Origin: Chloroflexi bacterium UBA4730
GTDB taxonomy: Bacteria; Chloroflexota; Limnocylindria; P2-11E
DNA length: 64,000 nucleotides
Direction of reading: 5' to 3'
NCBI GenBank assembly: GCA_002404155.1
Contig: DHJC01000092.1
Coordinates: forward strand, 10,636-74,635
Shown: positions 1,748-49,598 of the stretch, in pieces
Layout: each line of letters begins with the position of its first letter
How positions within the stretch are numbered: the first letter of the stretch is position 1
The notes under the pieces: generated by a model
The model's input: only the letters and a program-made list of their open reading frames with translations
What the model was told of the DNA's origin: nothing
The model's database searches: none
Made by a program: the position numbers and the translations under genes

Positions 1748-3919
1748 CTACTGACGCACACCGTCCAAGAGCACCTCGGCAACGTGGCGCACGACGAACC
1801 GGTCGTGCGCCACGTCGGCCGCCCCGCGCAGATGCAGGAGGCAGCCGGGATTGTCGGTCGCCAGCACCGCGGCGCCGGTCGCGCGAACGTTGTCGAGCTT
1901 CCGCTGCGCGATCTCGCGCGCGAGCTCCGGATGATCGATCGACGTCGAGCCGCCGAACCCGCAGCACACCCCGCGCTCGGCGAGGTCGCGCACGGGGATC
2001 CCGGCGCGCTGCAGCAGTCCCGGCCCCGCGTCACCGGAGCCCATGACGTTCGTGGTCTGACAGAAAGAGTGCATCGTGACGGTCGGGGCGTCGGGCCGGA
2101 GCGGCAGTGCGGGCGGATCGGCGACCCGCTCCAGAAAGCTCAGCAGGTCGAGCGTGCGGGACCCGATGCGCTCGGCCCGCACGCGCCAGTCCGGTTCATC
2201 CGCGAGCAGCTCGGCGTAGTCGTGGGCGATCGCGATGGCACAGCTCGCCCCGGCGCTCACGTAGTGATCGGCCGCGACGGCCTCGAGCGCGCGGATGGTG
2301 TGTTTCGCCATCCGCCGGGCGGTCGCCCGATCCCCTGCATCGAGCGGCGGCAGGCCGCAGCAGTGCTGGCCCGCGGGCACGACGACCCGCGCGCCGCACG
2401 CGCGCAGCAGCTCGATCGCCGCCATGGCCTGCTCCGGGGCGAACCGATCGGTGATGCACTGCAGGAAGTACGCGACGGTCCGGCCCCGCGCCTGGCTGTT
2501 CGCCCACGGCCCCGTTTCCACCGGCTCGAAGGTCCGGCCGAGCAGGGTGTCGCGAGCGGGCGTCGCGGCGAGCGCGGGGACGCTGCGCCAGCGCTGCGCC
2601 GGCGGCAACGGGACGCGGAGGAACGCGCCGCGCCGGACCGGCCGCTGGAGTACGGACGCAGCGCGCATCACGACGTCGAAGACCCGCGGCCGGGACCAGA
2701 CGGCGAACGCGAGTCGTTTCGCGAGCGGCAGGCCGTGCGCCTCGACCACCTTCGCCCGCACCCGGAGGATCTGCTGCGGCAGTGGAATGTCGACCGGGCA
2801 GATCGTCGCGCACGCGTTGCAGCTCACGCAGAGGCTCTGCGGGCCGGCGACGGCATCAAGGCCGTGGTGCGCCGCGGTGTTCACGAGGCCGATCGGCCCG
2901 GAGTAGATGTAGCCGAAGACGTGTCCGCCGACCACCTGGTATGACGGGCAGACATCGGCGCACGCCGCGCAGCGGATGCAGCGCAGGACGTCGCGGAAGG
3001 CCGGATCGGCATGCAGTGCGCTCCGGCCGTTGTCCACCAGCACGAGATGGATCTCGCGGCCGTCGTCGGCGCCCGTGATGAAGCTCGTGTAGGTCGTGAT
3101 CTCCTGCGCCGTCGCGCTGCGTGCGAGGAGCCGGAGCTGCGACGCCGCATCGGCGAACGTCGGCACGAGCTTCTCCCAGCCGGCGATGACGATGAGCGTC
3201 TTCGGCAGCGTGCTCACGAGATCGCCATTGCCTTCGTTCGTTACGAGCATCACCGTGCCGGTGTCGGCGATGAGCGCGTTCGCCCCGATCATGCCCGCAT
3301 CGGCGGTCAGGAACACGCGGCGCAGCTCCGCACGCGCCAACCGGACCATCGCGCCGATGTCGTCCGGGTCGACGTCGGTGCGGGTCTCGGCCTCGAGCAG
3401 CGTCGCCACCTGCTGACGGCTCTTGTGGATCGCCGGCATGACCATGTGGCTCGGCGTCTCGTGGGCGAGCTGGACGATCCACTCGCCGAGATCGGTCTCG
3501 ACCACGCGGATGCCGGCCGCCTCGAGATGGTGGTTGAGAAAGACCTCCTCGCCGACCATCGACTTGCCCTTCGCGAAGAGCTTGACGTCGCGCTCCCGGA
3601 GCAGTCGAAGCACGATCTCCCGCGCGTCGTCGGCCGTCCACGCGTCGTGCACCGTCCCACCGCGAGCGGCGAACGCGGCGACGAATCGCGCGCGCGCCGC
3701 ATCCGGATCGGCGAGCACGCTGTCCTTCGCCGCCACGAGGCGAGCCTTCGCGTCGGCGAACGAGCTGGTCGACGCACCAAGCCCTGGCCCCTCGGCCTGC
3801 AGCCGGTCAAAGGCCGCGTCGCGAGTCAGCCGCCACGCGCGCTGGAACGCGAGGAGATTGCGCTTGAGCCGCGGGTCTGCCAGGGCGCGGCGGTACCGTT
3901 CGGCGAAGGGTGCGATCAC
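1748..3919 (-). CDS. lutB: fused LutB-LutA lactate utilisation protein (LUD domain + 2x4Fe-4S + CCG cysteine-rich domains)
   Basis: 723 aa. CIRCAACADVCP and CVSCNACATICP ferredoxin motifs after a LUD-type region. C-terminal half carries QHCCGLP and VCCGFGG (CCG domains typical of LutA/GlcF-like Fe-S oxidoreductases). Start overlaps the lutC stop by 4 nt. Confidence 0.85.
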   Translation of the reverse strand: MIAPFAERYRRALADPRLKRNLLAFQRAWRLTRDAAFDRLQAEGPGLGASTSSFADAKARLVAAKDSVLADPDAARARFVAAFAARGGTVHDAWTADDAREIVLRLLRERDVKLFAKGKSMVGEEVFLNHHLEAAGIRVVETDLGEWIVQLAHETPSHMVMPAIHKSRQQVATLLEAETRTDVDPDDIGAMVRLARAELRRVFLTADAGMIGANALIADTGTVMLVTNEGNGDLVSTLPKTLIVIAGWEKLVPTFADAASQLRLLARSATAQEITTYTSFITGADDGREIHLVLVDNGRSALHADPAFRDVLRCIRCAACADVCPSYQVVGGHVFGYIYSGPIGLVNTAAHHGLDAVAGPQSLCVSCNACATICPVDIPLPQQILRVRAKVVEAHGLPLAKRLAFAVWSRPRVFDVVMRAASVLQRPVRRGAFLRVPLPPAQRWRSVPALAATPARDTLLGRTFEPVETGPWANSQARGRTVAYFLQCITDRFAPEQAMAAIELLRACGARVVVPAGQHCCGLPPLDAGDRATARRMAKHTIRALEAVAADHYVSAGASCAIAIAHDYAELLADEPDWRVRAERIGSRTLDLLSFLERVADPPALPLRPDAPTVTMHSFCQTTNVMGSGDAGPGLLQRAGIPVRDLAERGVCCGFGGSTSIDHPELAREIAQRKLDNVRATGAAVLATDNPGCLLHLRGAADVAHDRFVVRHVAEVLLDGVRQ

Positions 3920-11596: not shown

Positions 11597-12804
11597 CCGA
11601 TTCGAAGACCCTCGGCGAGCGCGCCGTCAAAGCGATCGACGCGAAGCGGGCTGACCTCATCAAGCTCTCGCTCTCGCTCCACGGTGAGCCGGAGATCGGA
11701 TACCAGGAGCACAAGTCCGCCGCCAAGCTGACCGACTTCCTCGAGGCGAACGGCTTCGCCGTCCAGCGGAAGTACAAGGACGTGGAGACCGCGTATCGCG
11801 GCGACGCATCCGGCAAGGCCAACGGTCCGACGGTCGCGATCCTCACCGAGTACGACGCGCTCCCGGACATCGGCCACGCCTGCGGGCACAACCTGATCGC
11901 GATGATGGGCACCGGCGCCGCCATCGGCGTGCGCGCGGTCCTCGACGAGCTCCCCGGGCGACTTGCGGCCATCGGCACGCCCGCTGAGGAGGGCGGCGGC
12001 GGCAAGGTCGCGCTCGTGCGCGCCGGAGGCTTCGCCGATGTCGACGTCGCGATGATGTGCCACCCCTCGTCGCGGACGCTCGCTGGCCGGACGTCGCTGG
12101 CGTCGAACCGCGTGGACATCGAGTTCTACGGCAAGGCCGCGCACGCGGCGGCGCAGCCGGACAAGGGCATCAACGCCCTGGACGGCGTGATCCAGACCTT
12201 CAACAACGTGAACGCGATGCGCCAGCAGCTGCGGCCGGAGGCGCGCATCCACGGGATCATCACGAGCGGCGGCAGCGCCGCGAACATCATCCCCGAGTAC
12301 GCGATGGCGAAGTTCAGCGTGCGCGCGCTCGACCGCCGCTACCAGCAGGAAGTGCTGAAACGCTTCATCGCCTGCGCCGAGGGCGCCGCGGCCGCGACCG
12401 GCACGAAGCTCAAAGTCACGGTCCACGAGAACTCGGGCTACGAGAACATGGTCCCGTCGCAGCCGCTCGCCGACCGGTGGGCCGCGCACATGCGCGCCCT
12501 GGGGCAGGCGGTTCAGCCGACGCAGGACGACGAGCGGATGGGCTCGACGGACATGGGGAACGTGAGCCAGATCCTGCCGGCGATCCATCCGTACATCGGG
12601 ATCGCCGCCGACGGCACGCCGGGCCACTCGACCGCGTTCCGCGACGCCGCCGCGACGCCGGAGGCCCACGAGAACGCGCTGTTCGCGGCGAAGGCGCTCG
12701 CGCTCGTCGCCATCGACGCCTTGACCGACAGCGCGCTCCTCAAGCGCGCCCGCGCCGACTTCGAGGACCGCCGCACGCAAGGTGTGGTGAAGGGCAAGGC
12801 CTGA
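11593..12804 (+). CDS. M20-family amidohydrolase/peptidase
   Basis: ATG 11593 overlaps the upstream stop (ATGA). EPEIGYQEHKS...HACGHNL...GTPAEEGGGGK are metal-binding motifs typical of M20D amidohydrolases. The long N-terminal extension of ORF 10612..12804 is rejected. Confidence 0.88.
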   Translation: MTDSKTLGERAVKAIDAKRADLIKLSLSLHGEPEIGYQEHKSAAKLTDFLEANGFAVQRKYKDVETAYRGDASGKANGPTVAILTEYDALPDIGHACGHNLIAMMGTGAAIGVRAVLDELPGRLAAIGTPAEEGGGGKVALVRAGGFADVDVAMMCHPSSRTLAGRTSLASNRVDIEFYGKAAHAAAQPDKGINALDGVIQTFNNVNAMRQQLRPEARIHGIITSGGSAANIIPEYAMAKFSVRALDRRYQQEVLKRFIACAEGAAAATGTKLKVTVHENSGYENMVPSQPLADRWAAHMRALGQAVQPTQDDERMGSTDMGNVSQILPAIHPYIGIAADGTPGHSTAFRDAAATPEAHENALFAAKALALVAIDALTDSALLKRARADFEDRRTQGVVKGKA

Positions 12805-19093: not shown

Positions 19094-21748
19094 TCAGGCG
19101 GTCTTCGCGGGCTCCGCTCGGAGCGCGTACCCAAGCGCATCGTCCAGCTTCATCACCATCCCGCGCTGCACCGCCGGCTGCCGCTCGGAGGGGATGGTCT
19201 CGGGCTGGGCCCGGTCCTCCGTGGTGCCGAAGATCGCCGCGATGCCGACGCCCGTTTGCGTCGCGAGCGCCGCCCACGCGCCGACGAGCACGTCATGGCG
19301 CTCGAGATCGCCGCCGGACTTCGCGAGCTCGCCGAAGTTGCTGAGCATGAGGACAATGCCGCTCATGTCGCCCGCCGCGATGAAGAGCTCCGTCGCCTCG
19401 GTCCATGCGCGGCGCGCGGCTTCCAGGTCTCGGAGCTTGAGATCGACGACCCCGGTCATGTGCAGATCCCACGCGAGATCGAACTGGTTCGAGAGCGTGC
19501 GATGCTGCTCGAGCGCCTCGCCGATCGTCTTCCGCGCCAGCACGAGGTCCTCGTGCGGCTGGTCGGGACCGTGCGCGAGGACGTTCGTGAGCGCGAACGA
19601 TGCGCGGCCGATAGCGGCACCGTCGCCCAGCTCGCGGAACAGCGCGAGGGCCTCCTCCAGGAGCGCGCGCCCGCGGACCATGTCGGTGTTCGGGATCGTG
19701 TAGGCGAAAGAGAGGTTGTAGGCCGCGAGGGCGACCTCCTTGGGATCACCGAGCTCGCGCGCGAGGTCGAGCGCCGCCGAGTAGTACGTGAGCATCGCGG
19801 GATCGCCCATCCAGTACACGAGGCCGCCGGTCGCCTCGAGCGCCCGTAGGCGGCGCGCCGGGCTGGCTCCGGGCACGGCGAGCGCGCGCTCCGCCCAGCT
19901 CCGTCCCTCGCGCAGGTACCCGCGGATCTGCCAGAACCGCCAGAGGGCGTGGACGATGCGCGCGGCATCGTCGGCGCGGCCGCCGGCGATCGCGAACTCC
20001 AGCGCCGCGCGGAAGTTATCGTGCTCGAGCTCGACGCGATCCAGCCAACGCTTCTGCTCCTTCCCTTGCAGCTCGGGCTGCGCGCGCTCGGCGAGCTCGA
20101 CGTACGCCGCGAGGTGGCGCGCGCGCAGATCGGCCTCTTCGCCGCGCTCCGCGAGGCGCTCGAGCGCGTAGTCGCGGATCGTGACGAGCATCCGGAACCG
20201 CGGCTCGCCCGCCACTTCGAGCTGCCGCACGAGGCTCTGATCGACGAGCTCGCTCACGCCGTCGAGCACGTCGCGGCCGATGTCAGTCGATGGTCCGCAC
20301 ACCGTCTCGAGCTGCTCGAGCTGCGCGCCACCGACGAACACGGCCGAGCGGGCGAACAGTCGCTTCATCCCGTCATCGAGCAGGTCGTAGCTCCACGCGA
20401 TCGCGCCGCGTAGCGTGCGCTGCCGATCGGTACGGTCGGGCGCGGTGCTCGCGAGCAGGTCGAGGCCCTGTTTGAGCCGCGGCAGCATCGCCTGCGGCGT
20501 GAGCAGCTTGACGCGCGCCGCGGCGAGCTCGAGCGCCAGCGGCAGCCCGTCGAGGCGGACGCAGATCTCGGCGACGGACGCCGCGTTCTCGGCGGTCACC
20601 ATGAAGTCGGGCCGGACGGCGCGGGCACGCTCGATGAACAGCTTCACCGCATCTGATTGCGCGAGGACCTCGAGCGACGGGAGCCGTTCCGGATCCGGGA
20701 GCTCGAGCGGCGGGATCGGGAACTCCTGTTCGCCGGAGATCCGTAGCGGCGCACGGCTCGACGTGACGACCTTCACCTTCGGGGCGGCGTCGAGCAAGGT
20801 CGAGATCGTCGCAGCGGCAGGGAGGATCTGCTCGAAGTTGTCGAGCACGAGCAGCAGCTTCTTGTCGCGCACGTGCTCCGTGACCCGATCGATGGGCAGC
20901 TCGTTGCCGCTCACCTGTACCCCGAGCGAATGCGCGATCGTCGACGGTACGAGCTCGGGATCGCTGATCGGCGCGAGCGGCACCCAGAACGCCCCGTCCG
21001 GGAACCCGGCTGCCGCTTCGGCCGCGAGCTGCAGTGAGAGGCGCGTCTTGCCGGTGCCGCCCGGTCCCGTGAGGGTGAGGAGGCGGGTCCCGTCGAGCAG
21101 CTTCAGTCCGTCGCGGATCTCCTTCTCGCGACCGATGAACGTCGTCAGCTGGGTCGGGAGATTGTTCGGCGTGCGATCCAACGTGCGGAGCGCGGGGAAT
21201 TCGCTCGGGCAGCCGTCGATCACGAGCTGGAAGATCCGCTCGGGGTGGGCGAGATCCTTGAGGCGGTGCTCGCCGAGATCGCGGAGCGCCACCCCCGCCG
21301 GGAGATCGTCACCCGCGAGCATCCGGGTCGCGCCCGATGCGAGCACCTGGCCGCCGTGGGCGACGGCGGCGATCCGGGCGGCGCGATGCACGTCGATGCC
21401 GACGTAGTCCGCGCCGGCGCGCTCGCTCGCGGGCGTTCCTTCGCCGGTGTGCATCCCCATCCGCACGCGGACGACGGCGTCGTGCGGGAACGTGGTCGTG
21501 GCGAGGGCTCGCTGGCCGGCCGCGGCCGCCGCGAGCGCATCCTGGGCCGTGGCGAAGACGACGAAGAGCGCGTCGCCTTCGATGCGCACCTCGTGACCCT
21601 TCGCGAACGCCCGGCGGAGGGCCTCGGTGTGGGTCTCCAGGACCTCGTGATAGCGGTCGGTCCCGAGGGCGTTGAGCAGCTTCGTCGACCCCTCGATGTC
21701 GGTGAACAGGAAGGTGAGGGTGCCGCGCGGGAGCGGGCCGGTCGCCAT
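19094..21748 (-). CDS. class III adenylate/guanylate cyclase fused to STAND (NB-ARC-like) ATPase and TPR repeats
   Basis: 884 aa. LTFLFTDIEGST...GDALFVVF...GMHTGE cyclase motifs. LTLTGPGGTGKTRL Walker A and KKLLLVLDNFEQ Walker B. Helical repeat C-terminus. No C-terminal LuxR HTH seen. Confidence 0.88.
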   Translation of the reverse strand: MATGPLPRGTLTFLFTDIEGSTKLLNALGTDRYHEVLETHTEALRRAFAKGHEVRIEGDALFVVFATAQDALAAAAAGQRALATTTFPHDAVVRVRMGMHTGEGTPASERAGADYVGIDVHRAARIAAVAHGGQVLASGATRMLAGDDLPAGVALRDLGEHRLKDLAHPERIFQLVIDGCPSEFPALRTLDRTPNNLPTQLTTFIGREKEIRDGLKLLDGTRLLTLTGPGGTGKTRLSLQLAAEAAAGFPDGAFWVPLAPISDPELVPSTIAHSLGVQVSGNELPIDRVTEHVRDKKLLLVLDNFEQILPAAATISTLLDAAPKVKVVTSSRAPLRISGEQEFPIPPLELPDPERLPSLEVLAQSDAVKLFIERARAVRPDFMVTAENAASVAEICVRLDGLPLALELAAARVKLLTPQAMLPRLKQGLDLLASTAPDRTDRQRTLRGAIAWSYDLLDDGMKRLFARSAVFVGGAQLEQLETVCGPSTDIGRDVLDGVSELVDQSLVRQLEVAGEPRFRMLVTIRDYALERLAERGEEADLRARHLAAYVELAERAQPELQGKEQKRWLDRVELEHDNFRAALEFAIAGGRADDAARIVHALWRFWQIRGYLREGRSWAERALAVPGASPARRLRALEATGGLVYWMGDPAMLTYYSAALDLARELGDPKEVALAAYNLSFAYTIPNTDMVRGRALLEEALALFRELGDGAAIGRASFALTNVLAHGPDQPHEDLVLARKTIGEALEQHRTLSNQFDLAWDLHMTGVVDLKLRDLEAARRAWTEATELFIAAGDMSGIVLMLSNFGELAKSGGDLERHDVLVGAWAALATQTGVGIAAIFGTTEDRAQPETIPSERQPAVQRGMVMKLDDALGYALRAEPAKTA

Positions 21749-22238: not shown

Positions 22239-23722
22239 CCCCACCTCATCCGCCTGGCGAATACCCGGTCGTCGTTGTCGGCAGCGGTCCGGGTGGTCTC
22301 CAGCTTTCCTACTCGCTGCAGGTCCGTGGCGTGCGCCACGCGGTGATCTCCGCCGACCCATCACCAGGTGGCATGTTCCGCAGGTGGCCGTTCTTCCAGC
22401 GACTCCTTTCCTGGACGAAGCCGTACGCGCCCGAGGAGCGCGGCTCGCGGTACTACGAGCGCTACGACTGGAACTCGCTCATCGGCGACGAGGACCGGCT
22501 GCGCGCGATCCAGCCCGGGCTGATGGACGGGACCTCGTACTTCCCCGCGCGCGCGGAGATGGAAGCGAGCCTCGCGACCTTTGCGCGCGAGGCCGGGCTC
22601 CAGATCCGCTACGGCTGCCGCTGGACCGGCACGCGGCGCGAGGGCGATGGCTTCGTGCTCGAGACGACTGCCGGCGAGTACCGCTGCCGCGTGCCGGTCT
22701 TCGCGTTCGGGATGGCCGAGCCCTGGAAGCCCGACATCCCCGGGCTCGACGTCGTCCCGCACTACGCCGACACACGCGCGCCCGAGACTTACGCCGGCAG
22801 GCGGATCTTCATCATCGGCAAGGAGGTCTCGGCGTTCGAGCTCGCGAACGGCTTCCTGCCGTGGGCGAAGCAGATCGTCCTCGGGTCGCCGCGCCCGGTG
22901 GCCCTCTCCGTCGTGACGAAGTCCCTGGTCGGTGTGCGCGCGCGGTACGTGCAGCCGTACGAGGACCACATCCTGGGCGGTGGGGTCGTGCTGGTGAACG
23001 CGACCATCGACGAGGTCGTCCGCACTCCCGCCGGCTTCCGGGTGCGCACCATGCGCAGCGACGGCGGCGGTCCGCTCGTGTTCGAGGTCGACGATGTCAT
23101 CGCGACCACCGGCTTCACCCCGCCGATCGGCGACCTACCGACGCTCGGCGCGCAGACCTCGGGCCGCACAAAGATCCCGGCGCTCACGCCGCTGTTCGAG
23201 AGCATCGGCCTGCCCGGCGCGTATATGGCGGGCACCGTGACCCAGGGCGCGCCCGGACTCAAGAAGCACGGGATGCCGAGCAGCTCGGGCGCGGTGCACG
23301 GGCACCGCTACAACGCGCGGATCCTCGCCCGGCATCTCGCGCAGACGTACTTCGGGATCGACCCGGTCCGGCCGCAGCTGAAGGCGGACGCGGTCCTTCC
23401 GTACCTGCTCGCCGAGGTCACGCGCGCGCCGGAGCTGTGGCACCAGAAGTCGTACCTCGCGCGCACGATCCTGGTCGATGGCTCGCGCGGGATCATCGAC
23501 GACGGGATCCTTCCGCTGCAGCTGTTCGTCGACAGCGGCGGCCCCGACGGCGTCGCCGTCACGGTGGAGGCGAACCCCGCCGGCGACATCTACCCGGCCG
23601 TCTACATCCGGAAGGACAACGCGATCATCGAGCATCTACTGCCGTCGAACCCGCTCCTCGATTTCGAGACCGCGGAGCACCGCAAGCAGCTCGCCGACGC
23701 GCTCGGGCCGCTCGGCCTCTAA
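22235..23722 (+). CDS. FAD/NAD(P)-binding oxidoreductase (flavin monooxygenase/disulfide-reductase-like fold); probable CTG start
   Basis: Frame of ORF 22118..23722. GxGxxG (VVVVGSGPGG) begins 12 codons after CTG 22235, which overlaps the upstream TGA as CTGA. A second dinucleotide fold is at IFIIGKEVSAFE. The ATG at 22118 would overlap the cNMP-like gene by 121 nt. Confidence 0.8.
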   Translation: MTPPHPPGEYPVVVVGSGPGGLQLSYSLQVRGVRHAVISADPSPGGMFRRWPFFQRLLSWTKPYAPEERGSRYYERYDWNSLIGDEDRLRAIQPGLMDGTSYFPARAEMEASLATFAREAGLQIRYGCRWTGTRREGDGFVLETTAGEYRCRVPVFAFGMAEPWKPDIPGLDVVPHYADTRAPETYAGRRIFIIGKEVSAFELANGFLPWAKQIVLGSPRPVALSVVTKSLVGVRARYVQPYEDHILGGGVVLVNATIDEVVRTPAGFRVRTMRSDGGGPLVFEVDDVIATTGFTPPIGDLPTLGAQTSGRTKIPALTPLFESIGLPGAYMAGTVTQGAPGLKKHGMPSSSGAVHGHRYNARILARHLAQTYFGIDPVRPQLKADAVLPYLLAEVTRAPELWHQKSYLARTILVDGSRGIIDDGILPLQLFVDSGGPDGVAVTVEANPAGDIYPAVYIRKDNAIIEHLLPSNPLLDFETAEHRKQLADALGPLGL

Positions 23723-25317
23723 GCCGCCGCGCGCTGCGCTTCGGCGGGCTGGGGCGCCGGTCGGTTCTTGATGCCGAGCCCGTTCACCGCCGCGCCGGCC
23801 GCGAGCAGCCCTGCGGAGATCAGCATCGCGAGATGGAACGCGTCCGTCGACGCTTCGCGCTGGGCCTGGGCGACCGCGGCAGCGGACTGCGGACACGGGA
23901 CGTTGCCCCGGCATGGGTCGACGACGTTCAACGGCGCGTACGTCTTGCGGACCTCGGGGTTATTCGGGTCGAGCTGCGGCGCCCGGTCGTGCAGCCCGGC
24001 GTAGAAGCTCGTGGTGATCGCGATGAAGATCACCGCACCGGCGAGCTGCGGGCCGACGCGCGAGATCGCGTTGTTGATCGCCGACGCCACCCCCGAGTTC
24101 TTCGCTGGGACGCTCGTCATCAGCGCGGTCGTGAGCGGCGCGACCATGATCGACAGGCCGAACCCGAACAGCAGGCTCGCCGGCAGGAAGTCGATGAACC
24201 AGCTGGCCGGCGGGAGATAGCTACCCGGGTCGCCGAAGGCGAAGAGCCAGGGGCTCGTGGTGGCCGGCACGCGCAGGTACCAGAGCGTCCCGATGCACAT
24301 CAAGGCCGGACCGATCGCCATGAATGCCTTGGGTCCGTACTTCCCGGCGAGCGCTCCGAACCGCGAGCTGAGGACCACGAGGAACAGCCCGGACGGGAGG
24401 AACGCGAGGCCCGCGGCCGCCGCCGTGAAGCCGACGGTGCCCTGCACGAACAGCGTGATGAAATACCCCAGGACGTAGAGCGCGCCGTAGATCAGGAAGG
24501 TCGAGATGTTCGTCACCGTGAAGTTGCGCGAGCCGAACAGTTCCGGCGGGATGAGCGGATCCGCGCGGCGGGTCATGAGGATCGGGAGCGCGATGGTCGC
24601 GACCGCACCGATGCCGAGCATCACGAAGCCGAGCGGATCCTTCCACTCCCGCTGCTGCCCGTAGATCGCGCCGAACGACAGGCCGCCGACCGCAAGGGCG
24701 ACGACCAACGCGCCGAGCCAGTCGAAGCGGCCGCTCGCGTCCTCATCGCGACTTTCCTGGACATGGGTCGCGGTCGCCCAGAGGGCGACGATGAGCAGCG
24801 GCACGTTGATGAGGAACGCAGCGCGCCACGAGATCGAGTCCACGAGGATGCCGCCGACGAACGGACCGAGGATCGTCGTCGCGGCGGACGCCGCGGCCCA
24901 GAGTCCGAATGCGCGACCCTGCGCCTCGCCAGTGAACGTGACGGTGAGCAGCGCGAGGGAGCCGGGCACGAGGAGCGCGCCCGCGACCCCCTGCAGCACG
25001 CGGAAGAGGACGAGCAGCTCCATATTCGGCGCGAGGCCGCACAGCAGGCTCGTGACGAGGAAGCCGGCGAGCCCGAGGGTGAACATCCGCTTGCGCCCGT
25101 AGAAGTCGTTCAGCGCGCCGGCGAGGATGAGGAGCGCCGATACGGTCAGGAGGTAGCCGTTGTAGATGTACGACTGACCCTCGAGGACGCCGAACAGGCT
25201 GCTCGGGAGCTCCCGGCCGATCTTCGGAAGCGCGACGTTCACGACCGTCGAGTCGAGGAACACGATGCCCGACCCGAGGATCGCGGCGATGAGCGTCCAG
25301 CGCTGGCGCGCCGTCAT
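23719..25317 (-). CDS. MFS drug:H+ antiporter, DHA2 (EmrB/QacA, 14 TM) family
   Basis: ORF 23719..25338 (GTG); alternative ATG at 25317 (MTARQRWTLIAAILGSGIVFLDSTVVNVALP...). GALNDFYGRKRMF motif A; 14 hydrophobic segments. Stop overlaps the convergent flavoprotein stop. Confidence 0.9.
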   Translation of the reverse strand: MTARQRWTLIAAILGSGIVFLDSTVVNVALPKIGRELPSSLFGVLEGQSYIYNGYLLTVSALLILAGALNDFYGRKRMFTLGLAGFLVTSLLCGLAPNMELLVLFRVLQGVAGALLVPGSLALLTVTFTGEAQGRAFGLWAAASAATTILGPFVGGILVDSISWRAAFLINVPLLIVALWATATHVQESRDEDASGRFDWLGALVVALAVGGLSFGAIYGQQREWKDPLGFVMLGIGAVATIALPILMTRRADPLIPPELFGSRNFTVTNISTFLIYGALYVLGYFITLFVQGTVGFTAAAAGLAFLPSGLFLVVLSSRFGALAGKYGPKAFMAIGPALMCIGTLWYLRVPATTSPWLFAFGDPGSYLPPASWFIDFLPASLLFGFGLSIMVAPLTTALMTSVPAKNSGVASAINNAISRVGPQLAGAVIFIAITTSFYAGLHDRAPQLDPNNPEVRKTYAPLNVVDPCRGNVPCPQSAAAVAQAQREASTDAFHLAMLISAGLLAAGAAVNGLGIKNRPAPQPAEAQRAAA

Positions 25318-25355
25318 CAGCGCCTGCGGCTCACGCACGAGCGCCTGCGGCTCAT
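25317..25355 (-). CDS. mini-ORF 2, MSRRRSCVSRRR (12 aa)
   Basis: Duplicate of mini-ORF 1. Its TGA (25319-25317) shares its A with ATG 25317 of the DHA2 pump. Coding status unproven. Confidence 0.3.
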   Translation of the reverse strand: MSRRRSCVSRRR

Positions 25356-25395
25356 CAAGGGCGCCTGCGGCTCACGGACGAGCGCCTGCGGCTCA
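25320..25395 (-). repeat. four tandem copies of TGAGCCGCAGGCGC (spacing 21/20/21 nt) = two copies of a 41-nt unit
   Basis: Read directly on the minus strand: copies at 25395-25382, 25374-25361, 25354-25341 and 25333-25320. Confidence 0.95.
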
Positions 25396-25396
25396 T
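25355..25396 (-). CDS. mini-ORF 1, MSRRRSSVSRRRP (13 aa)
   Basis: Its ATG shares its A with the TGA of the DUF1684 gene (TGATG). Its own TGA shares its A with the next ATG. Coding status unproven. Confidence 0.3.
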   Translation of the reverse strand: MSRRRSSVSRRRP

Positions 25397-26040
25397 CAAG
25401 ACGGTGCACACCACTGGAGCTCGTGCGCCGACGCGCCGGGATACGTCAGCTCCCCCGCCTCGATCGCGACTGCCAGCCGGTTCGATGGCGGGGCGAGCGG
25501 GCAGACCCACTGCGGGTCGTAGTGGCAGCTCGGGTGGTACGCGAAGTTGAAATCGAGCCTGAGCGTCCCCCCATCGCCGCCCAGATCGGCGCCTTTCGCG
25601 GTGTCGAGGAGATAGCGGCCACCGCCGTAGGTCGTCGTTCCCGCGGTCGCATCGCGGAACGGCAGGAACACCCCGCCACCGTACGCGTCGAGCCAGAAGA
25701 TTTCGAGCGTGCCCACGGGAAGGTCGACTGCCCCGAACCGGACGAACGGGATGACGTCGCCGGTACTCGTCCCGACGTCGTAGCGCTCGTGCGGCAACGG
25801 TCGCACGCTCGCGCTGAATGCGAACGCGGGGTCGTACTCCGTATAGGCGAGCCCGGTGAACTTCGCGCGCTCGTGCTGCGGGAGCGCGGACTGGGGGTGG
25901 GCCCCGAAGAGCAGGTCGCGGGCCGTCCGCCAGTACCCGTGCGCGGCGACCGGATCGTCGGCGAGCAGCGCGCGCACCTCCGCGTAGAGCGTGTTCACGC
26001 GCCGACGGTAGTCGAGCAGCTCGAGGTAGCGTTCGTCCAC
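25396..26040 (-). CDS. DUF1684-domain protein
   Basis: 214 aa. YGGGRYLLD, DFNFAYHPSCHYDPQWVCPLAPPSNRL and AIEAGE are the hallmark motifs of DUF1684. Confidence 0.85.
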   Translation of the reverse strand: MDERYLELLDYRRRVNTLYAEVRALLADDPVAAHGYWRTARDLLFGAHPQSALPQHERAKFTGLAYTEYDPAFAFSASVRPLPHERYDVGTSTGDVIPFVRFGAVDLPVGTLEIFWLDAYGGGVFLPFRDATAGTTTYGGGRYLLDTAKGADLGGDGGTLRLDFNFAYHPSCHYDPQWVCPLAPPSNRLAVAIEAGELTYPGASAHELQWCAPS

Positions 26041-26042
26041 GG

Positions 26043-27410
26043 TCAGCGGAGCTTCGCCGCGGCCGCCGAGAAGAGCCCGCTCAACACGCGCGCGGTGGTC
26101 GGGAACGCATGCACCGTCTGCGCGAGCGTGTCGATGGGCGTGCCGAGCTTGATCGGGAGGACCGCGGCGTGGATGGCCTCGCCCGCGCCCTGGCCGGCGA
26201 TGAACGCGCCGATCAGCACCTTGCGCGTCCGGTCCACGACGATCGTCAGGTGGCCGCTGTCGGCCTCGACGACGTAGCCCTTCGTGCTCTTCGCGAATCC
26301 GGTCGTCTCCTCGAAGGCGTCGATCCCCTGTTCCTCGGCCTGGTCGAGCCGGAGGCCGACCGCGGCAGTCTCCGGGTCGGTGTAGACGACCCGAGGCGTG
26401 GCGCTGAAATCGACCGTCACGTCGTCGCCGAGCGCGATCCGTGCGGCCATCTCGCCTTCGTAGTGGCCGAGATGCGTGGAGAGCTCGTGACCGATGGGGT
26501 CACCGACCGCGTAGACGTGCTCGGCGACGCGCAGCCGGTCGTCGACCCTGATCGTGTCGCCGCCGTCGTACGTCACGCCGATGGTGGCGAGCCCGAGCGC
26601 GCCCAGGGCTGTCGCCGAGCTGCGGCCCACCGAGAGCTGGATGATCGCGCCCGAGACGCTCGTCCCGTCGGAGAGCTCGACCTGGTGCTCGCCGTCGGGG
26701 CCGGCCTTCGGACGGATCCGCGCGGCCCGGGCCTTCTCGCGCACATCAACGCCGGATCGGCGCAGGGTCTCGGCGAGGAACGCCGAGCTCAGCGGATGGT
26801 CAGTCGGATTGACCCGGCCGACGATCGCCGTGCGCACGCCGTAGCGCGCGAGGTACTGCGCGATCTCGACACCCGACGGACCGGCGCCGAGGATGACGAT
26901 GCTCTTCGGCAGCTCGCGCAGGCTCGTCGCTTCGACATTCGTCCAGTACCCGGCGCGCTCGAGCCCCTCGAGCGGCGGGATCTTCGCGACCGAGCCCACG
27001 GCGATGATCACGTCCGTAGCCGTGAGCTCGTGCGTGGTGCGCTCGTGGGTCACGACGACTGTGCCCGGCCCCGCGAGCGTGGCGGTCCCGCGGAAGACGG
27101 TGGCTCCGGCCTTCTCGAGGGCGTGGACGTGGCTGCCGTCGTTCGGGTAGTCGGTCTTGATCCGATTGATCATGTAATCACGCCGGTCCGACGCCTTGGA
27201 CCAGGGGTAGTCCCCGCCATGGGCCTTGGCTTCCGCGGCATGGAGCAGCGTCTTCGAGGGCATGCAGGCCCAGAACGGGCACGAGCCACCGAACAGGTCC
27301 CGGTCGATGATCGCGACGGATGCGCCGCGACCGCGGGCGAGATGGGTCGCGGCCTCGCCGGAGGCGCCCGCGCCGATGACCACGAGATCGAACGCGCCGG
27401 GCGTCGCCAT
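26043..27410 (-). CDS. class I pyridine nucleotide-disulfide oxidoreductase (dihydrolipoamide dehydrogenase/mercuric reductase-like)
   Basis: Start at MATPGAFDLVVIGAGASGE (M49 of ORF 26043..27554). Redox-active GGSCPFWACMPSK (CX4C), second Rossmann ILGAGPSGVE, C-terminal dimerisation domain with HAFPT. Confidence 0.88.
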   Translation of the reverse strand: MATPGAFDLVVIGAGASGEAATHLARGRGASVAIIDRDLFGGSCPFWACMPSKTLLHAAEAKAHGGDYPWSKASDRRDYMINRIKTDYPNDGSHVHALEKAGATVFRGTATLAGPGTVVVTHERTTHELTATDVIIAVGSVAKIPPLEGLERAGYWTNVEATSLRELPKSIVILGAGPSGVEIAQYLARYGVRTAIVGRVNPTDHPLSSAFLAETLRRSGVDVREKARAARIRPKAGPDGEHQVELSDGTSVSGAIIQLSVGRSSATALGALGLATIGVTYDGGDTIRVDDRLRVAEHVYAVGDPIGHELSTHLGHYEGEMAARIALGDDVTVDFSATPRVVYTDPETAAVGLRLDQAEEQGIDAFEETTGFAKSTKGYVVEADSGHLTIVVDRTRKVLIGAFIAGQGAGEAIHAAVLPIKLGTPIDTLAQTVHAFPTTARVLSGLFSAAAAKLR

Positions 27411-27808
27411 CAGAGCGGGCGGTACCACAGGTCCGCGCCGCGCTTCGCGACGAAGACGTCGAGCCGCGCGCCGCTCCAGCTGCAGGTCACGGCGTCGCCG
27501 CGGGGCGCGTCCGGGACAAGCTCCCACTCCACCCAGCGGGTGCCGTCCCACCACCGATGCCGGAGCCGGCCGTCGGTGCCGAAGGCGAAGACGTCGATGC
27601 GGTCCGCGCCGCGGGCCGCGGCCGCGGGCTGGCCGGTGAAGCCGGCTCCGAGCGATTCCCAGTCATGCCAGCGCGATCCGTCCCAGTACCGGTCACGGAG
27701 CTCGCCGTCGTCGTGGACGGCGAAGAGCTCGCACTCTCCGCCATCACCCCACGACGCGACGGCCGCACTCGATGCGAGCGTGCCGCCGAGCGAGATCCAG
27801 CCGCCTAT
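27410..27808 (-). CDS. three-blade beta-propeller-repeat (PLL/DUF346/tectonin-like) protein; start unresolved (ATA at an ATAG overlap?)
   Basis: The last 132 codons of ORF 27410..28210 form three about 44-aa repeats with W-x-W-x-LG...(L/I)DVFA-x-G-x-DG-x-L-x-H/D-R-x-WDG. The upstream 134 codons overlap the SBP gene out of frame and are Arg-rich. There is no ATG/GTG/TTG after the SBP stop. The TGA shares its A with the next ATG (TGATG at 27412-27408). Confidence 0.5.
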   Translation of the reverse strand: MGGWISLGGTLASSAAVASWGDGGECELFAVHDDGELRDRYWDGSRWHDWESLGAGFTGQPAAAARGADRIDVFAFGTDGRLRHRWWDGTRWVEWELVPDAPRGDAVTCSWSGARLDVFVAKRGADLWYRPL

Positions 27809-28713
27809 TTGATGAGGCCCATCTTCTTCAGCCAGGCTTTCGCGATGTCCTTGGGGTCGGTCTTGTCCACGTCGTTCTGCTTGTTCATCGCCGTCAGCTC
27901 CGCGGTCGTGAGCTTCGGGGCGATGGAGTTGATGAGCGACTTGAAGTCGCTCGGGGCCTTCGAGAGCAGATCGTTCCGGACGACCGGCGCGATGTTGTCC
28001 GACAGCTGCAGGTGCTTGTCGTCCTCGAGGAGCACGAAGCCGTTGGTCGCGATCGTCGAGTCGGACGTGAACAGCAGCCCGATGTCGATCTGCCCACCCT
28101 TGAGCGCCGCAACGGTGAGTGCGCCGCCGGTGTCGAGCGGTTTGAAGTCCTTGAACGTGATCCCGTACGTGCTCTTCAGACCGAGCGCGCAGAACGGACG
28201 GTTCGGGCACTCCGCCGGACCACCGAGCACGAGCTGATTGCCCACGGCCGTGACGTCGGACAGCTTGGTCAGCTTGTACTTGTCAGCCGTCGCTTTGGTG
28301 ACGACGAAGCCGTTCTGGTCGACCGCCGGGGCGAAATCGAGGACCGTGAGGTTCTTGCTGTCGAGCTCCTTCTGGAGCGCGGTCGAGGTCGTCTTCGGAT
28401 CGGTCGACCCTGTCGCGGTCTTGTTCACGAACGCAAGGAGCGTCGCGAGGTAGTCGGCCTCCAGGTCGATCTGGCCGCTGGTCAGGGCCGGGAACACGAT
28501 CTCGCGTGCGCCGAGGTTGAACTTCCGGGTGACGGTGTACCCGTTCGCTTCCAGGACCTGCGCGTACAGCTCACCCAGGATGAGCTGCTCCGGGAAGTTG
28601 GTGGAGCCGATCGTGACGTTCGGCTTGGCCGCGCCGGTGGTGCCGCCGCAGGCGCTCGCGACGATCACCGCCACCAGGAACCCGGTCACCAGTCTCCCGA
28701 TCGATGCGCGCAT
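27805..28713 (-). CDS. glycine betaine/choline-type ABC transporter substrate-binding lipoprotein (OpuAC/OpuCC family)
   Basis: 302 aa from MRASIGRLVTGFLVAVIVASAC (lipobox). IGSTNFPEQLILGELYAQVLE and LEDDKHLQLSDNIAPVV are typical of the family. AAGGAG Shine-Dalgarno 7 nt upstream. Confidence 0.88.
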   Translation of the reverse strand: MRASIGRLVTGFLVAVIVASACGGTTGAAKPNVTIGSTNFPEQLILGELYAQVLEANGYTVTRKFNLGAREIVFPALTSGQIDLEADYLATLLAFVNKTATGSTDPKTTSTALQKELDSKNLTVLDFAPAVDQNGFVVTKATADKYKLTKLSDVTAVGNQLVLGGPAECPNRPFCALGLKSTYGITFKDFKPLDTGGALTVAALKGGQIDIGLLFTSDSTIATNGFVLLEDDKHLQLSDNIAPVVRNDLLSKAPSDFKSLINSIAPKLTTAELTAMNKQNDVDKTDPKDIAKAWLKKMGLIK

Positions 28714-46032: not shown

Positions 46033-47840
46033 GCCGGCTGCTTCTCCTCGGCTAGGACGAGCTGGCGCAGCTCCTCCGGGATCTGCGGGAGTGGCTCGGT
46101 CGCGAGCTCGAGCTGGCCGCCGCGCTTGCGGGTGACGACGTTCTTCTTCCCCCACTCGGGATCCGCCTTCTGGTAGTCGTCGCGGGTGTGGCCTCCGCGG
46201 CTCTCCTGCCGCATGAGCGCCGAGCGTGCACAGGCCTTCGACACCGTGATCATCGACCGGAGGTCGAGGGCAAGGTGCCAGCCGGGGTTGAACTGCCGGT
46301 TGCCTTCGACGGTCACGCGGTCGACCCGCTCGCCGAGCACGTCGAGCGTCGCGATGGCCTGCTGGAGCTCCGCCTCGGTGCGGATGATGCCGACGAGGCG
46401 CTGCATCGTCTCCTGTAGCTCGGCATGGAGCGCGTACGGGTTCTCGGTCCCCTCGCCGTCGAACGGCGCGAGCATCGAGCGCGCGGCCGCCTCCACCTGC
46501 GCGTCATCCACCGCGCGGGCGTTCGTCCGGCTCGCATAGGCCGCCGCGCCGGCACCGGCCCGGCGGCCGAACACGAGCAGATCCGAGAGGGAGTTCCCGC
46601 CGAGCCGGTTCGCGCCGTGCATACCCGCCGCGACCTCGCCCGCAGCGAAGAGCCCGGGCACCGTCGCCGCGGCCGTCTCGGGCTCGACCCGCACGCCACC
46701 CATGAAGTAGTGGCACGTCGGGCCGATCTCCATGGCGGTCGTCGTGATGTCGACGTCGGCCAGCTGCTTGAACTGTTGATACATCGACGGCAGCCGCTTC
46801 TTGATGAACTCCGGCGAGCGGCGCGACGCGATGTCGAGGTACACACCGCCGTGCGGAGTGCCGCGACCGGCCTTCACCTCGGTGTTGATCGCGCGCGCGA
46901 CCTCGTCGCGCGGCAGGAGGTCCGGTGTGCGGCGGTTGTTCTTCTTGTCCTCGTACCACGCGTCGGCCTCGCGCTCGTTCTCGGCGGTATCGGCCCGAAA
47001 GAACTCGGGGATGTAATCGAACATGAACCGCTTGCCCTCGTTGTTCGTCAGCATGCCGCCGTCTCCACGGACGCCCTCGGTCACGAGCAGGCCACGGACG
47101 CTCGGGGGCCACACCATCCCCGTCGGGTGGAACTGGACCATCTCCATGTCGATGAGGTCCGTGCCCGCGTCGAGGGCCATCGCGATCCCGTCGCCGGTGT
47201 ACTCCCACGAGTTGGACGTGATCTTCCACGCCTTCCCACCGCCGCCGGTCGCGAGGACCACGGCACGCGCGCCGAAGAGGACGAACTTCCCGCTTTCCCG
47301 CCAGTAGCCGAACGCGCCCGCGATCTTGCCGCCGTCGGTGAGGAGGCGCTGGAGCGTGCACTCCATGTATACGTCGATGCCCTTGTGCACCGCGTGCTGC
47401 TGGAGGATGCGGATCATCTCGAGCCCGGTGCGGTCGCCGACGTGCGCGAGCCGCGCGTAGCGGTGGCCGCCGAAGTCTCGCTGGAGGATGAGTCCGTCAC
47501 TCGTCCGATCGAACAGGGCACCCCACTCCTCGAGCTCGAGCACGCGGTCCGGCGCCTCCTGGGCGTGCAGCTGCGCCATCCGCCAGTTGTTGAGGAGCTT
47601 GCCGCCGCGCATCGTGTCTCGAAAGTGGACGCGCCAGTTGTCCTCCTTCCACACATTGCCGAGCGCGGCGGCGATGCCGCCTTCGGCCATGACCGTGTGA
47701 GCCTTCCCGAGGAGCGACTTGCAGATGAGCGCCGTGTGCGCGCCCGCGGCCGACGCCTCGATCGCCGCGCGCAGCCCCGCACCGCCGGCCCCGACCACGA
47801 TCACGTCGTAGTCGTGCCGCTCGATCCCCTCTTTGCTCAT
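46029..47840 (-). CDS. sdhA: succinate dehydrogenase/fumarate reductase flavoprotein subunit
   Basis: 603 aa. VIVVGAGGAGLRAA, KAHTVMAEGG (FAD-His region), QFHPTG, RGGHTR. Confidence 0.95.
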   Translation of the reverse strand: MSKEGIERHDYDVIVVGAGGAGLRAAIEASAAGAHTALICKSLLGKAHTVMAEGGIAAALGNVWKEDNWRVHFRDTMRGGKLLNNWRMAQLHAQEAPDRVLELEEWGALFDRTSDGLILQRDFGGHRYARLAHVGDRTGLEMIRILQQHAVHKGIDVYMECTLQRLLTDGGKIAGAFGYWRESGKFVLFGARAVVLATGGGGKAWKITSNSWEYTGDGIAMALDAGTDLIDMEMVQFHPTGMVWPPSVRGLLVTEGVRGDGGMLTNNEGKRFMFDYIPEFFRADTAENEREADAWYEDKKNNRRTPDLLPRDEVARAINTEVKAGRGTPHGGVYLDIASRRSPEFIKKRLPSMYQQFKQLADVDITTTAMEIGPTCHYFMGGVRVEPETAAATVPGLFAAGEVAAGMHGANRLGGNSLSDLLVFGRRAGAGAAAYASRTNARAVDDAQVEAAARSMLAPFDGEGTENPYALHAELQETMQRLVGIIRTEAELQQAIATLDVLGERVDRVTVEGNRQFNPGWHLALDLRSMITVSKACARSALMRQESRGGHTRDDYQKADPEWGKKNVVTRKRGGQLELATEPLPQIPEELRQLVLAEEKQPA

Positions 47841-47873
47841 TTCCGGCTCATTTCCGGCTCATCTCCGGCTCAC
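47841..47873 (-). repeat. 11-bp tandem repeat x3 (minus strand TGAGCCGGA[AG]A) at the sdhC-sdhA junction
   Basis: Plus strand ttccggctcat (47841-51), ttccggctcat (47852-62), ctccggctcac (47863-73). A partial fourth copy gctcat ends at the sdhA start (47840). Confidence 0.95.
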
Positions 47874-48716: not shown

Positions 48717-49598
48717 ATGGTCGTGGAGCTTCAGCAGCTGCGCTACTTCGTCGCCGTCGCCGAGACCGGCAAGTTCACGACGGCTGCGCGCGACCTTCAC
48801 GTGGCCCAGCCGTCGGTGAGCAAACAGGTGCGGAAGCTCGAGACCGAGCTCGGCGCGGTGCTGCTCGAGCGGCGCAAGGCCGGCATCCTCCTCACTGACG
48901 CCGGCGCGATCCTCCTGCCCTGGGCGAAGCGCGTGCTCGCCGACCTGGACGGCGCCCGGTCGGAGGTCGCCGGCCTCGCGACGCTCGAGCGCGGCCGGCT
49001 GTCGGTCGGCGCGACCCCGAGCCTCAGCACGGTCCTGCTTCCGCGCGTGCTCGCCGCGTTCCACGCGGAGCATCCGGGCGTGACGCTGAACGTGGTCGAG
49101 GCCGGCTCGCGCGATCTCGTCGATCACCTCGCGGCAGGTGATCTGGACCTCGCCCTCGTCATCCTCCCGGTGCCGCGCGAGGAGCTGTTCGAGACGACGC
49201 CGCTCATCCGCGAGGAGCTCGTCCTTGCCGTCGCGAAGAAGCATCCGCTCGCGCGGCGCAAGACGGTGAAGGTGAGCGAGCTGCGCGGCGTCCCGCTCGT
49301 GATGTTCCGCGACGGCTACGACCTGCGGAGCGCGACGATCACCGCCTGCGAGCAGGCCGGGTTCCACCCGACATTCGCGATCGAGGGCGCCGAGATGGAC
49401 GGGGTGCTGCGGATGGCCGCCGCGGGGGTCGGCGTCGCGGTCGTGCCGAGCATGGTCGTCGAGCGCGGCGGGCGGCTCGTCGCGGTCCGCATCGCACAGC
49501 CGACGCTGTCGCGTTCCGTCGGCGTCGCGTTCCGCCGCGATCGCCACCACTCGCGGGCGGCTGACGCGTTCGTGGCGCGGCTGCGCGCGTTCATCTAG
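48717..49598 (+). CDS. LysR-family transcriptional regulator
   Basis: 293 aa. LRYFVAVAETGKFTTAARDLHVAQPSVSKQVRKLE HTH. Divergent from sdhCAB. Confidence 0.92.
   Translation: MVVELQQLRYFVAVAETGKFTTAARDLHVAQPSVSKQVRKLETELGAVLLERRKAGILLTDAGAILLPWAKRVLADLDGARSEVAGLATLERGRLSVGATPSLSTVLLPRVLAAFHAEHPGVTLNVVEAGSRDLVDHLAAGDLDLALVILPVPREELFETTPLIREELVLAVAKKHPLARRKTVKVSELRGVPLVMFRDGYDLRSATITACEQAGFHPTFAIEGAEMDGVLRMAAAGVGVAVVPSMVVERGGRLVAVRIAQPTLSRSVGVAFRRDRHHSRAADAFVARLRAFI

Follow-up and report, generated by a model that had tools for sequence, protein, structure and literature searches.

The 64,000-nt stretch of Chloroflexi bacterium UBA4730 DNA analysed here, from a soil member of the Chloroflexota (contig DHJC01000092.1, positions 10,636 to 74,635; hereafter the window), carries on its minus strand a gene for a DUF1684 protein followed directly by a gene for a DHA2-like efflux pump of the major facilitator superfamily (MFS). 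The junction between them is occupied by a short tandem repeat that contains two very small open reading frames (mini-ORFs). Our results suggest that this repeat is probably a locus-specific minisatellite, grown by tandem duplication at a translationally coupled junction, and that its mini-ORFs would relay ribosomes from DUF1684 to the pump. An earlier note on this DNA had raised a termination-reinitiation relay as a possibility. Comparison with related genomes now supports that proposal, although indirectly: the insert between the two genes ranges from 0 to 82 nt in relatives, and the phase needed for stop-start overlaps, which only lengths of 3n+2 nt preserve, has been kept. Since the conserved feature is reading phase, the pattern fits a termination-reinitiation relay.

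The chain of overlaps was read directly on the minus strand, to which all features described here belong, and the mini-ORFs were also traced with a relay algorithm that sets out from the DUF1684 stop and accepts nothing but -4 and -1 overlaps on its way to the pump frame. The DUF1684 gene (25396..26040, 214 aa; Pfam PF07920, E = 2e-39) ends in TGA 25398-25396, the entry point of the relay. Two starts overlap this stop, ATG 25396-25394 (a -1 overlap) and the in-frame TTG 25399-25397 (a -4 overlap, TTGA). Mini-ORF 1 (25355..25399) reads (TTG)ATG AGC CGC AGG CGC TCG TCC GTG AGC CGC AGG CGC CCT TGA and encodes (L)MSRRRSSVSRRRP; without the optional leucine its product is MSRRRSSVSRRRP, and its own stop, TGA 25357-25355, is overlapped by ATG 25355 and TTG 25358. 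Mini-ORF 2 (25317..25358), which starts over that stop, reads (TTG)ATG...CGC TGA and encodes (L)MSRRRSCVSRRR. The A of its TGA 25319-25317 is also the first base of the pump start, ATG 25317. Three successive TGATG overlaps (25398, 25357 and 25319) tie together the DUF1684 stop, two mini-ORFs of 12-13 codons and the MFS start, at the same coordinates as the earlier note had given, and the 4-nt or 1-nt stop-start overlap that characterizes coupled gene pairs of the ATGA/TGATG type is present. Two of the three TGATG overlaps are also TTGA: they read cTTGATG, with a TTG one codon upstream in frame, so that the commoner -4 (NTGA) geometry is available there too, a detail that the earlier note lacks. 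The TTGA at the DUF1684 stop is created by the final DUF1684 codon, which is TCT in the window and in many expanded relatives. TCT accounts for 1.8% of Ser codons in the window, where T occupies 6% of third positions, and because the last codon is this rare one, the TTG over the DUF1684 stop appears to have been retained.

The mini-ORFs are carried by a tandem repeat (25320..25400) of two 41-nt copies that differ by 1 base, each copy consisting of a 21-nt and a 20-nt sub-unit. Four exact copies of a 14-nt core, TGAGCCGCAGGCGC, lie at 25320-33, 25341-54, 25361-74 and 25382-95, with a spacing of 21/20/21 nt. This arrangement had been described in the earlier note and was found exactly so; Tandem Repeats Finder agrees, reporting a period of 41, 2.0 copies, 97% identity and a score of 155, the top tandem repeat of the window. 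Elsewhere in the 64 kb the core has no match closer than 2 mismatches and none above chance. In 0.85 Mb of related loci we found 32 near-matches, 17 of them at the DUF1684-MFS junction and the others scattered singletons. A dispersed repeat family (REP, MITE or MIRU-like) was rejected, the core being confined to the DUF1684-MFS junction across these two search spaces. Inverted repeats at the junction are weak (74-82%). We also considered that the unit might be a copy of the first ~6 codons of the pump, given a by-eye likeness to some unexpanded junctions (for example GTGAGCCGC in loci L028 and L030). This origin was not demonstrated: when the unit was aligned locally to 70 unexpanded loci, the top hit coincided with the junction in only 0-1 of them.

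The evidence that carries the argument comes from orthologous junctions. DUF1684 relatives drawn from species-representative genomes and metagenomes gave 160 loci, almost all of them from soil and carrying the label Ca. Limnocylindria or Chloroflexota, and ~115 of the 160 have the same MFS gene directly downstream. Each junction was measured from the DUF1684 stop to the codon of a conserved pump residue, Trp7. This distance is 17 nt in 70 loci, which corresponds to a plain 4-nt NTGA overlap with no repeat and no mini-ORF; NTGA with a GTG, ATG or TTG pump start is found in 48 of 50 distinct sequences of this unexpanded kind. Four loci have a distance of 11 or 14 nt and represent in-frame shortenings, and the distance is negative in 21 loci, where the DUF1684 frame continues into the pump gene. 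The remaining loci, which fall in a subclade, are expanded by +8, +9, +11, +14, +17, +20, +23, +29, +41, +80 or +82 nt. All mini-ORF steps among them are 2 mod 3, the sole exception being an in-frame +9 duplication (L016, L020), and no junction of the repeat type is 1 mod 3.

In 24 of the 25 distinct expanded junctions the relay algorithm recovered an unbroken stop-start chain, despite differing peptides, start codons and copy number. The encoded peptides include MSRRRS, VRRRSRS, LTEPRAR, MRRLR, LKNG and MNA, as well as LKEPQALLKEPQAP in L003, MIHRGRA in L006 and VNA in L089, each followed by a stop; in L003-L005 the starts available are TTG, not ATG. The core, in the form GAGCCGCAGGCGC, recurs in many expanded junctions, as one copy (L004, L017, L087, L090) or two (L003, L005, L008). 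Locus L093 carries four tandem 20-nt units linked by GTGA, each encoding VRRRSRS and a stop (GTG AGA AGG CGC AGC CGC TCG TGA), the fourth having AGC CGC AGG at codons 3-5. Copy number in relatives is 0, 1, 2 or 4 units, and the comparison of DUF1684-MFS junctions that the earlier note had recommended does reveal variation, from 0 to 4.

Several details of individual relatives were recorded alongside. The L093 array (2146-2231 of metagenome contig Ga0070698_100004935) is an independent four-unit array with a strict 20-nt period. In its units 1-3, GGCGCAGCCGC takes the place of the GCCGCAGGCGC found in the last unit and in the window; C and G are exchanged reciprocally, so that a GCC-GCA-GGC / GGC-GCA-GCC mini-palindrome is maintained. 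L001, with no repeat, and L008, with two units, both come from the metagenome-assembled genome (MAG) SMAG_U6255, so that two versions of the DUF1684-MFS pair occur in one bin; these could be paralogues or mixed strains. Two other arrays lie near gene boundaries and have a consensus unit that makes no relay: a 10-nt unit, GCCCAGATCA, in 7.3 copies at 6231-6302 of L024, and a 37-nt unit in 2.2 copies at 296-375 of L079, with a CTCCCC-GCAA-GGGGAG hairpin.

On a neighbour-joining tree of the flanking coding sequence the unexpanded state is basal. The window (+82) pairs with L001 (+0), L093 (+80) with L090 (+20), and L003/L005 (+41) with L004 (+20), while L012 (+0) groups with L010 (+14) and L011 (+11). 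At least ten changes of junction length are seen on this tree, with frequent change within one subclade.

The window alone cannot tell whether the chain matters. Chains of at least two overlap-joined short ORFs, counted in any frame, number 17 in the window against ~33 per dinucleotide shuffle of this 69% GC sequence. Rarity of the pattern was dropped as an argument, since it is common in shuffles, and the case was moved to the comparative data. What stands out is that the repeat is exact and that it bridges two real genes; taken by itself, a chain of this kind is unremarkable. Tandem duplications of unexpanded junctions containing NTGA were also simulated. Duplications of 2 mod 3 lengths gave a stop-start relay in 99% of cases, those of 0 mod 3 lengths gave an in-frame N-terminal extension in 96%, and those of 1 mod 3 lengths broke the chain in 98%. 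The second mini-ORF in the window is an automatic by-product, a point absent from the earlier note, because the duplication length of 41 nt is 2 mod 3.

We propose the following history for the junction. In the ancestral state, the DUF1684 stop would have overlapped the pump start by four bases (NTGA). A ~20-nt unit with its own stop-start overlap would then have been gained in a subclade of Ca. Limnocylindria, and in the lineage of the window a 21+20-nt pair would have been duplicated once more. This last duplication is probably recent, because its two copies differ by 1 base in 41. With each step measuring 3n+2 nt, a ribosome reinitiating at one stop would reach a stop that overlaps the next start, and two throw-away mini-ORFs would hand ribosomes from DUF1684 to ATG 25317. 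The mini-ORF peptides themselves would have no function; their translation would maintain the coupling of the pump to DUF1684 over a distance that reinitiation could not otherwise span.

This proposal is consistent with published work on coupled genes. Reinitiation was reduced by 40-80% when stop and start were separated by +14 nt and was nearly abolished at +38 nt (PMC10666635), and downstream genes of overlapping pairs were untranslated when the upstream ribosome stopped early (PMC6728339). Because reinitiation is nearly gone at +38 nt (PMC10666635), an untranslated spacer of 79 nt would uncouple the pump. A spacer built of mini-ORFs, each stop lying on the next start, would therefore keep the coupling, and in the comparative pattern only such spacers persist. 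We infer that the mini-ORFs are translated, that the pump would need them for its own translation instead of being initiated directly at ATG 25317 or at an upstream in-frame GTG 25338, and that each extra unit would lower pump output.

A number of observations weigh against a relay and have to be set beside the phase rule. The organism is uncultured, and the relay is a prediction from sequence. The chain follows automatically from a 3n+2 duplication and therefore is by itself no proof of function; shuffles of the spacer interior still bridge the two genes in 8.4% of cases. Coupling is not obligatory, as indicated by L002, the one expanded junction that has lost its bridging start (CCTGA), and by L014 and L095, whose junctions carry a TAG or TAA stop and a hairpin. 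In a further 18 loci (for example L027, L099 and L104) the DUF1684 frame is not closed at the junction; it continues for 58 nt beyond Trp7 and ends at a conserved TGA. ATG 25317, GTG 25338 and TTG 25358 are each preceded, at 5 nt, by a weak AGG, so that some independent initiation is possible. Finally, when the insert classes are treated as independent events, all seven being at 2 mod 3 has a probability of ~5e-4, a value that is only rough because the classes may not be independent: several look like one ~20-nt ancestral unit plus 3n indels. Both histories, independent insertions on the one hand and a single ~20-nt unit with 3n indels and whole-unit steps on the other, would nevertheless imply a constraint on reading phase.

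Two of these exceptions are of interest as junction types in their own right. The 18 loci represent a long-overlap state of the DUF1684-MFS pair. In L014 (about 3840-3900) and L095, the TAG/TAA stop is followed by a GC-rich hairpin (GTGCCCGCACC...GGTGCGGGC), TTT and then TTGAGCGCTTGAGCC, and this junction may be a terminator-type, uncoupled form of this gene pair.

Several of the same observations can be read in favour of a neutral repeat scar, in which the array is a slippage product, the mini-ORFs are unused and the pump is initiated directly at ATG 25317 or GTG 25338. A 3n+2 duplication makes the chain automatically, comparable chains are common by chance, GTG 25338 is the start picked by gene callers, and the candidate starts have the weak AGG 5 nt upstream. 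L002, moreover, has no bridging start and yet persists, and its GTG is preceded at 4 nt by a G-rich run. This explanation, however, leaves unaccounted for why over at least ten length changes on the tree the junction is always 2 mod 3 (or 0) and never 1 mod 3, and why a rare TCT keeps a start over the DUF1684 stop. Direct initiation also finds no strong Shine-Dalgarno motif and no promoter-like site at the junction. We consider a neutral scar unlikely, though it deserves to be taken seriously.

The orthologous junctions also bear on where the pump gene begins. From ATG 25317 the pump gene (23719..25317) encodes a DHA2-like MFS transporter of 532 aa that opens with MTARQRWTLIAAILGSGIVFLDSTVVNVALP (Pfam MFS_1, E = 1e-43). 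Its best NCBIfam match is DHA2 TIGR00711, at 222.1 bits against a curated cutoff of 230.2, and a crude hydropathy scan gave 13-16 hydrophobic segments, where a DHA2 drug:H+ antiporter (14-spanner) has 14 transmembrane segments. Counting from ATG 25317 places the conserved Trp at residue 7, as in the 70 unexpanded junctions, which supports this codon as the ortholog of the pump start in relatives. Gene callers choose instead the alternative in-frame GTG at 25336..25338, which lies inside mini-ORF 2 in another frame and would give a pump of 539 aa; the automatic calls in six public assemblies (L161-L166) start the pump there, 58 nt past the end of DUF1684. The GTG 25338 start has no ortholog support, and its 7 extra residues are repeat sequence. 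As a practical point, gene callers misplace the pump start inside the repeat and overlook the mini-ORFs.

Mis-assembly of short exact repeats can occur, and the earlier note had worried that the array might be an expansion made by an assembler. We regard this as having practically no chance of being correct. The 141-nt junction is identical to that of the window in six independent assemblies, the places returned by our search, which represent different samples and pipelines: two from ENA, two NCBI MAGs (GCA_003454595.1 and GCA_002405245.1) and two from Logan. In addition, the 82-nt array is shorter than the read length and than the k-mers given in contig names (k119, k141), and 1, 2 and 4 units were found independently in related genomes. 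The agreement of the six assemblies excludes the worry. The exact DUF1684 protein is recorded in 36 blocks of the public assembly index, and copy number did not vary among the six assemblies, which are nearly identical and represent the strain of the window.

A second array of the same build occurs in the window at the junction between an SdhC-like membrane protein and an SdhA-like flavoprotein. Here an 11-nt unit (CGGAAATGAGC) is present in three extra copies (47837..47873); Tandem Repeats Finder reported a period of 11, 3.5 copies and 96% at 47835-47872. The SdhC-like protein, so labelled from its position and from the name given by one source to a homologue, with no Pfam match, ends in VDPRWIS, and its TGA 47872-47870 is overlapped by GTG 47873. 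Three mini-ORFs of 4 codons follow, SRR, MSRK and MSRK, each with its stop (GTG AGC CGG AGA TGA, then ATG AGC CGG AAA TGA twice), joined by ATGA. The last ATGA holds ATG 47840 of the succinate dehydrogenase/fumarate reductase flavoprotein (Pfam FAD_binding_2, Succ_DH_flav_C). The unit length of 11 nt is again 2 mod 3. By eye it is obvious that the unit would derive from the junction itself (ATGAGCcggaa compared with ATGAGCaaaga). The array is identical in four independent assemblies and is absent from five orthologous junctions (L167-L171); in three of these the overlap is a plain NTGA, and the conserved ERHDYD codons again lie at a distance of 17 nt. Because the sdh array has the same build, the relay architecture is not specific to the pump and recurs in the genome. 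We count it, together with the L093 array, as an independent replicate of the pattern.

The earlier note had offered two regulatory readings of the repeat, neither of which held up. In the first, the Arg-rich mini-ORFs would act as a leader-peptide sensor of the erm or tet(L) type, stalling ribosomes in response to a drug or to the supply of arginyl-tRNA. The position directly upstream of a DHA2-like efflux pump and the recurrence of Arg-rich peptides in several relatives (MSRRRS, VRRRSRS) are what such a sensor would predict. However, peptide sequence, type of start codon and copy number are unconserved, as the peptides of L003, L006 and L089 listed above illustrate, and 70 of the ~115 orthologous junctions have no mini-ORF at all. 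Neither a conserved leader peptide nor alternative RNA structures, the two features of a leader-peptide attenuator, were found. RNA folding of 25290-25430 gave a minimum free energy of -68.6, where shuffles averaged -69.3 (z = 0.16), and hence no structure signal, and Rfam returned no match over 23000-28500 at E <= 1; on these two results any RNA element at the junction was rejected. The Arg codons merely reflect the GC-rich repeat, and the same architecture stands upstream of a housekeeping enzyme in the sdh array. A leader-peptide sensor is very improbable on this evidence.

In the second reading, the four direct repeats, about two helical turns apart, would be transcription factor sites in a DNA operator controlling the pump. 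Four exact 14-nt sites at 21/20/21-nt spacing are indeed present, but regular spacing is expected from tandem duplication itself, and most relatives lack the unit altogether, with 1 to 4 copies in the others. The repeat also sits between genes that are otherwise fused by a 4-nt overlap, within a tightly packed gene train. No promoter-like or terminator-like site was found in the repeat, no regulator gene was seen among the nine neighbouring ORFs scanned against Pfam, and the core occurs nowhere else in the window, with just over half of its near-matches in related loci (17 of 32) at this same junction. An operator strikes us as, if anything, a shade less probable than the sensor.

The train to which the two genes belong comprises an ABC permease, an OpuAC binding protein, a DUF346 propeller-repeat gene, a pyridine-nucleotide disulphide oxidoreductase, DUF1684 and the MFS gene, with junctions that include TGATG and a 2-nt gap. 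The TGATG between the propeller-repeat gene and the oxidoreductase (27408..27412, both named from Pfam assignments), which the earlier note had pointed out in the same gene train, is present and is an ordinary -1 overlap. Stop-start overlaps follow ~12 of ~52 putative genes in the window and by this count are routine in the genome. Other tandem repeats of the window lie at 12073-12101 and 49508-49544, neither of which forms a stop-start relay, and at 38577, 48040 and 57121. Unrelated to the junction, an 884-aa protein (19094-21748) combines an adenylate/guanylate cyclase domain, a STAND/NB-ARC-type NTPase and TPR repeats.

If the relay reading is correct, each 3n+2 unit would add one termination-reinitiation step, and slippage would shift downstream output stepwise while leaving the frame and the operon intact. 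Two such arrays occur in one 64-kb window, at the pump and at succinate dehydrogenase; repeated turnover is seen at the pump junction, and for the sdh array only its absence from five orthologs. It is tempting to speculate that phase-locked minisatellites at gene junctions are a general, previously undescribed tuner of the ratio of two coupled proteins in high-GC bacteria such as Ca. Limnocylindria, an extension that we rate as doubtful. Should copy number tune expression, these arrays would provide evolution with a simple rheostat and designers of synthetic operons with a useful part. For an uncultured phylum, the pump junction meanwhile amounts to a natural experiment on translational coupling, with at least ten junction-length changes under one phase rule. 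That rule is the pattern expected if reinitiation needs an overlapping stop and start, as in E. coli and Haloferax reporters (PMC10666635).

Among known systems, ATGA/TGATG coupling (Huber et al. 2019, PMC6728339; Huber et al. 2023, PMC10666635) shares with the junction its -4 and -1 overlaps, the implied need for a very short distance between stop and start, and the commonness of such overlaps in the genome. The known cases join two real genes directly, whereas here two non-conserved mini-ORFs (four in L093) would stand in series between them. The upstream ORFs that feed a coupled gene (Shell et al. 2015, as cited in PMC12548453) are similar in that only their translation matters and that their stop overlaps the start of the real gene. 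In that account, however, they begin transcripts and are often leaderless, whereas the mini-ORFs are intercistronic, repeated and made by duplication. Leader-peptide control of erm, cat and tet(L) likewise involves a short ORF directly upstream of a resistance-type gene, but requires a conserved stalling peptide and alternative RNA pairings, and neither is present here.

The closest known analogue, which the earlier note had not mentioned, is the mycobacterial interspersed repetitive unit (MIRU, or MIRU-VNTR), and we suggest that the junction element would work alike without being a member of that family. According to published accounts (PMC12548453, PMC3184786, PMC2734929), MIRUs (Supply et al. 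1997) are 40-100 bp long, occupy ~41 loci per genome, are thought to be mobile, and have target-site repeats and imperfect inverted repeats, terminal and internal. Two of these accounts (PMC3184786, PMC2734929) add that the number of copies varies, that the ORFs overlap the neighbouring genes at both ends, and that the junction measures a few bases where a species has no repeat. No sequence resemblance between MIRUs and the junction unit was seen with the tools used. In both, a tandem repeat lies between genes of one operon; small ORFs overlap the flanking stop and start at -4 spacing, an arrangement present at our junction and predicted to preserve downstream coupling; copy number varies between related genomes (0, 1, 2 or 4 units here); and relatives have homologous junctions of just a few bases. 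The two differ in unit length (20-21 nt, or 41 as a pair, against 40-100 bp), in distribution (one junction in the 64-kb window and the 0.85 Mb of related loci searched, against ~40-50 copies genome-wide), in the lack here of detectable inverted ends or structure (z = 0.16; inverted repeats of 74-82%), and in phylum, Chloroflexota as opposed to Actinomycetota. In our searches of the literature, no description of an equivalent from outside the mycobacteria came up. Taken together, these comparisons suggest that a MIRU-like solution, in which a repeat at a coupled junction comes with a bridging ORF, can have a local origin and is not restricted to mycobacteria.

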